Shown piece after piece: positions 5,548 through 6,900 of a stretch of 64,000 nt of DNA. The notes below the pieces were generated by a model. That model saw only the letters and a list, made by a program, of their open reading frames with translations, was not told the origin of the DNA and ran no database searches. Both the position numbers and the translations under genes were made by a program. The DNA comes from Eledone cirrhosa. Lineage: Eukaryota. The first letter of the stretch is position 1. The number at the start of each line of letters is the position of its first letter. Location of the stretch: the NCBI GenBank assembly GCA_964016885.1, contig OZ024740.1:150226001-150290000 (forward strand). Direction: 5' to 3'.

Positions 5548-6898
5548 TATCCTCTTGATAAGTCGGCAGACCTCGCAAGGACTCTATATCTTTGATATAT
5601 TGTTTTTGTTTATGCCACGAAACTACGTAGTCGAGGAATTTAGGAGCAGTTTAGGTATGATACATTTTATTACTAATTATATCTAAATGTTTCTTCTCTC
5701 TTCATAATGTATTTTTAACTCTGATACTGGTTCAGTCTAGTTCAAACTGAATTGGTCTGTCCCAGTCATTCATTGAGCAACATCGGTGAAGTTGGCACCC
5801 TTAACTCACAGTTGGGTGCGGATGCATTCATGTATATATGTGTGTGTCCGCATGTATCTGTGTGTTTCTAAATATATTGTTAATAACTCCCTCTGGTCGA
5901 GCAATCTTTGAAGTGTGGGGACAACTGGAAAGCTTCCATTACTCATACTTCTCGCCTTCTTCACTACCTCTTCTACGGCCTCGATATGAATACCCCCTCC
6001 GCCTCCGTGGTATTTTCTTCGTGGTTATAAGAGGCTTAGCTCTGTTTCTCGACCGTTATATCGCGTGACTATCTCCCCCTCCGCCTTTTGGGATTCTTTC
6101 TCACGTCGTGTAGACGCGTTCTTGAGACTAGTAAAATGAGGTATCCTCTTGATAAGTCGGCAGACCTCGCAAGGACTCTATATCTTTGATATATTGTTTT
6201 TGTTTATGCCACGAAACTACGTAGTCGAGGAATTTAGGAGCAGTTTAGGTATGATACATTTTATTACTAATTATATCTAAATGTTTCTTCTCTCTTCATA
6301 ATGTATTTTTAACTCTGATACTGGTTCAGTCTAGTTCAAACTGAATTGGTCTGTCCCAGTCATTCATTGAGCAACATCGGTGAAGTTGGCACCCTTAACT
6401 CACAGTTGGGTGCGGATGCATTCATGTATATATGTGTGTGTCCGCATGTATCTGTGTGTTTCTAAATATATTGTTAATAACTCCCTCTGGTCGAGCAATC
6501 TTTGAAGTGTGGGGACAACTGGAAAGCTTCCATTACTCATACTTCTCGCCTTCTTCACTACCTCTTCTACGGCCTCGATATGAATACCCCCTCCGCCTCC
6601 GTGGTATTTTCTTCGTGGTTATAAGAGGCTTAGCTCTGTTTCTCGACCGTTATATCGCGTGACTATCTCCCCCTCCGCCTTTTGGGATTCTTTCTCACGT
6701 CGTGTAGACGCGTTCTTGAGACTAGTAAAATGAGGTATCCTCTTGATAAGTCGGCAGACCTCGCAAGGACTCTATATCTTTGATATATTGTTTTTGTTTA
6801 TGCCACGAAACTACGTAGTCGAGGAATTTAGGAGCAGTTTAGGTATGATACATTTTATTACTAATTATATCTAAATGTTTCTTCTCTCTTCATAATGT

Positions 6899-6900
<2 letters not shown>
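5548..6900 (+). mobile_element. Retrozyme-like tandem array, 594 bp unit, ~2.3 copies
   Basis: Direct repeat of period 594, TA-flanked, non-coding, three HHRs. Confidence 0.85.
5550..5637 (+). ncRNA. Hammerhead ribozyme, U3-A8 variant; copies 6144-6231 and 6738-6825
   Basis: TCCTC-TTGATAA-[GTCGGCA..TGCCAC]-GAAACTACGTA-GTC-GAGGA; palindromic stem III ACTACGTAGT. Confidence 0.75.

Follow-up and report, generated by a model that had tools for sequence, protein, structure and literature searches.

A likely retrozyme insertion in Eledone cirrhosa with tandem type I hammerhead motifs and a predicted loop-to-loop pseudoknot

Introduction

What kind of element is represented by a tandem non-coding repeat that carries one hammerhead ribozyme motif per copy, and would its ribozymes be expected to act? 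The question is raised by positions 5548–6900 of the 64-kb window (the whole stretch of Eledone cirrhosa DNA that was analyzed, whose numbering is used throughout and which has a 200-N gap elsewhere). It bears on two points given as open in the available text of the reports concerned: how metazoan retrozyme circles avoid self-opening (PMC7229834) and whether the hammerheads of Penelope-like elements (PLEs) matter for mobility (PMC11167929). As a test case, the locus appears to be both young and intact; a specific lock is predicted for it, and comparing copy 1 with copy 2 provides a natural deletion control. We consider it likely that the locus is a young, 5′-truncated insertion of a non-autonomous retrozyme, with a 594-bp non-coding unit and a type I hammerhead per copy, copied into (TA)n by the reverse transcriptase (RT) and GIY-YIG endonuclease of a PLE.

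An exact 594-bp tandem between (TA)n tracts

A perfect run of period 594 occupies exactly 5548–6900 of the plus strand, with 0 mismatches over the 759 nt compared, and amounts to 2.28 copies of the unit; alternative periods of 585–604 gave 509–575 mismatches. The insertion is bounded by a terminal direct repeat of 165 nt (5548–5712 and 6736–6900), and (TA)n tracts, the inferred target, lie on both sides of it (4749–5547 on the 5′ side and 6901–7190 on the 3′ side). A candidate target-site duplication of 10 nt occurs 323 times in the window and is hence uninformative. The 3′ end of the array has the order last cleavage site, 80-nt tail, and (TA)n. Its first position is 2 nt 5′ of the stem I of copy 1, and every other hammerhead motif in the window is at least 192 nt from the TA tract upstream of it. 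This start probably reflects a single event with TA microhomology, i.e., a chance truncation. The exact tandem and its start at the hammerhead stem I, both proposed in a preliminary description of this DNA, were thus confirmed. Within the window, the family of the 594-bp unit is confined to this one locus.

The longest internal stop-to-stop frame of the unit is 87 aa, the two longest frames had no Pfam match, and a tblastn search of the unit against the rest of the window was blank. A coding or delta-like circle was considered, given that 594 is divisible by 3, yet all six circular frames contain 7–16 stops, and it was rejected on this and the blank Pfam and tblastn results. An autonomous PLE was likewise rejected, there being no RT and GIY-YIG ORF between the hammerhead units. 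Scans of the window found no tRNA and no phage match; sigma-70 sites numbered 3 (2.1 expected), a scan irrelevant to an animal.

Three type I hammerhead motifs with a U3–A8 core

Each copy contains a type I hammerhead motif, with TTGATAA cores (U3–A8) at 5555, 6149, and 6743. Downstream of every core come, in order, the stem II domain (57 nt), GAAA, a palindrome of 8 nt, UC, and the 5-bp stem I. The GUC triplets end at 5632, 6226, and 6820, and cleavage is predicted after C5632, C6226, and C6820 in copies 1 (5550–5637), 2 (6144–6231), and 3 (6738–6825), respectively. Copy 1 comprises stem I (5550–5554/5633–5637), the core (5555–5561), stem II (5562–5618), and the palindromic helix III arm (5623–5630). 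The motifs show the hallmarks of type I hammerheads: an N3-U-G-A-N-N8-A core with a Watson–Crick 3–8 pair, GAAA, an NUH triplet, three helices, and an open stem I. Dinucleotide shuffling of the unit gave a type I motif in 0 of 5,000 trials, and shuffling of the window gave a strict hammerhead motif in 0 of 100; chance origin of the three motifs is excluded. The three had been described as identical. This is correct for the sequence from stem I to stem I; further upstream, copies 2 and 3 have a strand that copy 1 lacks. The compensated 3–8 pair and the 57-nt stem II domain, also part of that description, are present in all three.

No Rfam hammerhead reached the gathering score anywhere in the window. 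At E ≤ 10, the 5540–6910 region gave 11 Rfam matches, none of them a hammerhead; these (mir-268, VrrA, and others) fell well under the gathering score and were taken as chance hairpin matches. The Rfam models missed even the canonical-core motifs of the window, so the hammerheads here were not assigned to an Rfam family. The statement that standard searches miss the motif therefore holds for Rfam but does not single this motif out, as the gathering score missed all the other hammerheads of the window too. A plant LTR retrozyme was rejected as an assignment; it requires a type III hammerhead in its LTRs, and the motif here is type I.

The U3–A8 pair had been put forward as a novelty, but this was not sustained. 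Such covariants occur naturally and are active in vitro (PMC3088659), and a dedicated descriptor recovered ~1,300 U3–A8 motifs in Schistosoma mansoni PLEs, one listed example having a 7-nt core identical to the TTGATAA core here (PMC4209133). The pair also recurs elsewhere in the window, in short-stem families at 49954 (minus), 50225 (plus), and 54849 (minus). Taken alone, the retrozyme and the U3–A8 core are ordinary.

A long stem II and a predicted pseudoknot

The stem II domain had been drawn as branched. This was not borne out, with two or more hairpins found in only 8 of 4,981 sampled folds that kept the closing helix. The predicted structure is a rod that begins with a helix of 6 bp containing one bulge and continues through a 6x3 internal loop into 8 + 6 further pairs. 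The strand on the 5′ side of this loop (L2; 6164–6168, also 5570–5574 and 6758–6762) is predicted to be unpaired (P 0.92–1.0) and is complementary, completely and over 5 bp, to a strand located 5′ of stem I (L1; 6138–6142, also 6732–6736). In copy 1, the L1 partner strand is missing and 0 complementary bp remain.

Two other long-stem-II families, each an inverted pair and ~76% alike, are present in the window: 15319 (plus)/15187 (minus) and 28237 (plus)/27915 (minus). Their stem II domains of 51 and 49 nt follow a plan that matches the 594-bp unit, and their helix III palindrome is also 8 nt but differs from that of the unit in the central two bases. In all three families, the strand complementary to L1 begins at stem II position +9 and forms 5–6 Watson–Crick pairs; equal complementarity was given by 0.7%, 0.7%, and 1.4% of random 10-mers (4,000 draws). 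At least 5 bp of L1:L2 complementarity occurred in 5 of the 15 motifs tested, every one of which has the long stem II and starts from +9, and nine motifs of other families had at most 3 bp. When the three families were compared in register, 3 pairs were invariant and 2 of 5 had changed on both sides (G–C to A–U and U–A to A–U). These pairs were read by coordinates, with neither a covariance model nor a formal pair count, because MAFFT placed the pseudoknot strands out of register. A pseudoknot was recognized by at least 4 bp between peripheral strands of stem I and stem II together with covariation; only three sequences, of which two are related, supplied the 5 bp and two double changes observed, and the first case was already known when the 10-nt search window was set. 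From the sequence comparison, it is predicted that the stem II loop docks on L1 as a base-paired pseudoknot. This predicted loop-to-loop pairing with a long stem II, which has no counterpart in copy 1, is what is new here.

Alternatively, an ordinary PLE hammerhead that acts as a dimer could have gained its long stem II as a neutral insertion, with the L1:L2 complementarity being incidental. The comparison of three sequences, two of which are related, and the presence of just two covarying pairs are consistent with this. In addition, L1 and L2 of the 594-bp unit resemble the two stem I strands, so their complementarity could be a by-product. However, L1 is unlike stem I in the related families, the +9 register is common to all three, L2 is predicted to be single-stranded, and the nine motifs of other families do not exceed 3 bp. 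We regard incidental complementarity as a real possibility, although the lesser one.

Kinship of the 594-bp unit with the long-stem-II families is supported by alignments through ribozyme and tail, which were matched by 0 and 1 of 200 shuffles. With the ribozyme nucleotides removed, the tail alone still gave a signal against the 15319 family (5 and 26 of 1,000 shuffles). The corresponding test against the 28237 family was not significant (370 and 126 of 1,000), and neither were five control tails. Of the 12 regions compared with the unit, 2 aligned through hammerhead and tail; 1 more aligned via low-complexity sequence and was discounted. No convincing sequence link was seen to the other 10 element ends, the intact PLE among them. 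A 44-nt segment of the unit (6031–6074, also 6625–6668; plus strand) resembles the 15319 hammerhead region but lacks most of the core. The likeness was equaled in 1 of 500 shuffles (12 of 200 for the best of 8 control motifs), and the segment is possibly a core-deleted relic of a hammerhead of that type.

Competing folds and expected activity

The cleavage-to-cleavage monomer (5633–6226; second copy, 6227–6820) is 594 nt long. Compared with shuffles, its folding on the plus strand gave z −6.1 (z −6.9 in another computation, 0 of 100 shuffles) and on the minus strand z −0.2. That the ribozyme strand folds strongly and the other strand does not points to selection acting on RNA of the plus strand. 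The 80-nt tail (6821–6900) contains a 71-nt hairpin that ends 9 nt before the junction, and the base of this hairpin captures the 3′ strand of stem I in a predicted lock.

Pseudoknot-blind folding placed the probability of stem I at ~0 in copies 2 and 3. In copy 2, examined in its native context, it stayed at ~0.00 whichever of the 14 transcript lengths was folded, and likewise when the array was folded as a whole. In these copies, L1 can form a hairpin with the 5′ strand of stem I, and the 3′ strand is held by the base of the tail hairpin (P 0.96 in the circle). The catalytic fold of copy 2 lies 7.6–11.1 kcal/mol above the minimum, pseudoknot energy excluded, and 10.0 kcal/mol above it in the circle. 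The pseudoknot helix, computed as a duplex with initiation included, contributes −6.9 kcal/mol and may not repay this cost. The catalytic fold of copy 1 is 1.1–1.9 kcal/mol from the minimum free energy at lengths up to cleavage+60, i.e., before the tail is made. Pairing of the helix III palindrome between copies is favored (P 0.98 in the array), and the dimer was computed at −52.3 versus −43.0 kcal/mol for two monomers, with the spacer kept unpaired. Set against the pseudoknot and the palindrome pairing, the competing folds suggest, in this modeling, a ribozyme balanced between on and off rather than constitutively active. Low activity has precedent in the available reports: 8 of 9 predicted Xenopus retrozymes gave no cleavage in vitro (bioRxiv 2026.07.22.740005), and PLE hammerheads are weak in vitro (PMC4209133).

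Penelope-like elements and other hammerheads in the window

A relaxed descriptor identified 20 hammerhead motifs in the window versus 0.2 per shuffle. Of the 17 outside 5548–6900, 15 have a TA tract within 200 nt on their 3′ side, compared with 29.6% of background positions, although copies of the same family are not independent, and both the 17 and the 20 include a motif at 42900 (minus) that is probably a false positive. PLEs are densely represented in the window: an intact PLE frame of 775 aa with RT and GIY-YIG domains is found at 17425–19752, and more RT or endonuclease pieces occur elsewhere. The sequence of the intact frame contains a CX4CxxC linker, which is of the Neptune/Nematis type and has been hypothesized to bias insertion to microsatellites (PMC8557442).

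The intact PLE and a basic frame upstream of it lie on the minus strand (17425–20450), and the hammerhead nearest to this PLE (20352) lies on the opposite strand, where it precedes a TA tract by ~50 nt. A second minus-strand PLE (35528–38758) has a separate upstream frame of 445 aa without a Pfam family, and its RT frame is broken by a TA tract. PLE 3′ ends at 20800–22174 (minus) and 41800–43240 (plus) consist of a C-terminal endonuclease remnant, a UTR of ~1 kb, a hammerhead (20866, minus; 43136, plus), and a short tail. The short U3–A8 hammerheads at 49954 and 50225 form an inverted pair (49870–50395), and that at 54849 is upstream of a GIY-YIG remnant (53422–53871).

The long-stem-II hammerheads with the predicted pseudoknot in common lie in two related head-to-head inverted insertions (15050–15570 and 27785–28480). 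Tails are unequal within each pair, being 178 versus 65 nt in the former and 138 versus 56 nt in the latter, like the tail of a PLE with two start sites. A retrozyme-like array of 310-bp units (9108–10403) is made up of 2.2 minus-strand copies joined to 2.0 inverted copies; its hammerheads have a canonical core (9303, minus; 9613, minus; 10234, plus), with a single core change in one copy at 9926. A further canonical-core family is dispersed over 11056–11460, 13190–14333, 24100–24700, and 55000–55550. Its motifs at 11279 (plus), 13469 (minus), 14103 (plus), and 55263 (minus) have GUU as the cleavage triplet in three of the four cases and GUC in the other.

Origin of the array and proposed mechanism

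The locus has several of the features by which non-LTR retrozymes are recognized: two or more units in succession that each carry a complete type I hammerhead (three motifs at 594-nt spacing), a non-coding and highly self-paired monomer, and an autonomous PLE in the same window. The tandem retrozyme of the preliminary description was judged the best explanation, with the strand difference in monomer folding in its favor; the predicted pseudoknot and the competing folds are additions to that description. In the mechanism we infer, the plus strand would be transcribed and cleaved after GUC, helped most likely by inter-copy pairing of the helix III palindrome and by the 5-bp pseudoknot, which would also draw L1 out of its inhibitory hairpin. 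A ligase of the RtcB type, supplied by the host, would close the released 594-nt monomer, as has been shown for the retrozymes of axolotl and mussel (PMC7229834), and in the completed circle stem I would be locked by the tail hairpin. Target-primed reverse transcription would then copy the circle into (TA)n, starting internally at ~80 nt 3′ of the cut and running for more than two rounds. Copying would end by microhomology just 3′ of L1, leaving copy 1 without it. The anole PLE starts reverse transcription 85–92 nt 3′ of its hammerhead cut, as computed from published positions (PMC11167929), and the end here is at +80.

Uncleaved RNA is the main template of that anole PLE and suffices for its copying (PMC11167929), which makes copying from a multimer a serious rival. 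The element class would be the same, but the template would be a multimeric transcript that a parent array had produced and that had stayed uncleaved, with a ribozyme that is slow, protein-assisted, or a passenger. Hammerhead mutations were without effect on insertion of the anole element, whose ribozyme needed protein (PMC11167929), and weak PLE hammerheads in vitro (PMC4209133) and the burial of stem I by competing folds in copies 2 and 3 also fit with this. However, the core is intact with a compensated 3–8 pair, the palindrome and L1:L2 have been kept through double changes, and retrozymes of mussel, coral, and axolotl do form circles (PMC7229834). A circular template requires identical copies, and identical copies are seen here, but a young parent array would yield them as well. 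We assign the multimeric template a substantial probability, somewhat short of even. It is improbable, in our view, that the unit is instead the orphaned pseudo-LTR (pLTR) or 3′ end of an autonomous PLE, tandemly repeated after its ORF was lost by 5′ truncation, and not an independent family. Truncated PLE ends across the window do share the architecture of hammerhead, short tail, and (TA)n, and retrozymes derive from pLTRs (bioRxiv 2026.07.22.740005). But a usual PLE has its ORF between successive pLTRs, whereas 594 non-coding nt separate the hammerheads here, strand-specific structure extends over the whole unit, and there is no ORF relic. Local DNA duplication, or an assembly artifact of a single copy, would be compatible with the perfect identity of the copies, the long low-complexity flanks, and the 200-N gap. 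The non-integer copy number, an end at +80 as in PLE ends, and the recurrence of the pattern in the unrelated 310-bp hammerhead array, with its tandem and inverted arms (9108–10403), make this explanation very improbable.

Returning to the retrozyme, a broader proposal can be made only tentatively, and we hold it to be rather unlikely as a whole. Among octopods, the type I hammerheads linked to PLEs would include a clade with a rod-like stem II of 49–57 nt, the internal loop of which docks by Watson–Crick pairing onto a strand upstream of stem I. For the present retrozyme, docking would act as a strand-swap switch, with two purine and two pyrimidine strands pairing either crosswise (off) or correctly (on). 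The tail hairpin would lock the circle off, so that cleavage would be limited to nascent multimers or RNA bound by PLE protein, and 5′-truncated first copies, having lost the switch strand, would differ from internal copies.

Comparison with known systems

The array resembles the metazoan non-LTR retrozymes in its tandem non-coding repeats, single type I hammerhead per unit, self-paired monomer, and co-occurrence with PLEs (PMC7229834; bioRxiv 2026.07.22.740005). Its 594 bp is inside the 51–972 bp range of animal retrozymes (bioRxiv 2026.07.22.740005) but exceeds the 170–400 nt of invertebrate retrozyme circles (PMC7229834). It differs from them in the U3–A8 core, the 57-nt stem II, and the predicted base-paired L1–L2 contact. 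The ribozyme is also predicted to be blocked in the circle, whereas in most metazoan retrozyme circles it is free by prediction (PMC7229834). The available text of these two sources includes no cephalopod example.

The U3–A8 hammerheads of S. mansoni Cercyon PLEs are alike in being type I and in their 5-bp helix I, palindromic helix III, G10.1–C11.1, and U3–A8 pairs (PMC4209133). As we read that report, helix II in 56 aligned examples is a short hairpin of ~23 nt at most, a size limited by the descriptor, compared with 57 nt here. PLE hammerheads are described as usually being without tertiary contacts (PMC6155905), in contrast to the L1:L2 contact predicted here. The pseudoknot-stabilized hammerheads, e.g., human C10orf118, share a Watson–Crick pseudoknot between the stem I and stem II regions (PMC3088659). 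Such a pseudoknot is reported in ~40% of examples, and the stem-length analyses of that study left out highly repetitive type I motifs (PMC3088659). The stem II partner differs from theirs in being an internal loop under a further 14-bp rod. The pistol-like PK hammerhead, in which a pseudoknot replaces helix II, is distinct from the motif here (PMC11300833). The anole Poseidon PLE PAc is similar in having its 3′ end ~80–90 nt past the hammerhead cut, beside a stem-loop, and in its AT-rich targets; it is autonomous, with an ORF overlapping the ribozyme (PMC11167929), and the 594-bp unit is without an ORF.

Among the matches listed by full-text literature searches there was neither a retrozyme from a cephalopod nor a pseudoknotted PLE hammerhead with a long stem II, and supplements could contain such variants. 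The terms hammerhead, ribozyme, and retrozyme are all absent from the main text of the Octopus vulgaris repeat annotation (PMC13282606), and the available text on the giant squid genome counts 235 Rfam hammerheads and goes no further (PMC6962438). With at least three long-stem-II families in 64 kb, the number of ribozymes in cephalopods may have been considerably underestimated. Should the pseudoknot prove real, base-paired tertiary contacts would extend to repetitive animal hammerheads, and a long-stem-II class would be defined that is missed by Rfam and by short-spacer descriptors.

Other features of the window include, at 58469–58633, a 55-aa first exon of the host alpha-1,2-glucosyltransferase, with 91% identity to Octopus sinensis and 69% to Argonauta, which marks the host as an octopod. 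LINE-type frames encoding reverse transcriptase and endonuclease are present on the minus strand at 45588–47900, 33056–35174, and 29725–30378; by their appearance, we take these to be RTE-like. Several copies of a short dispersed repeat, presumably an octopus SINE from its appearance, occur at 1938–2440 and 60576–63005.
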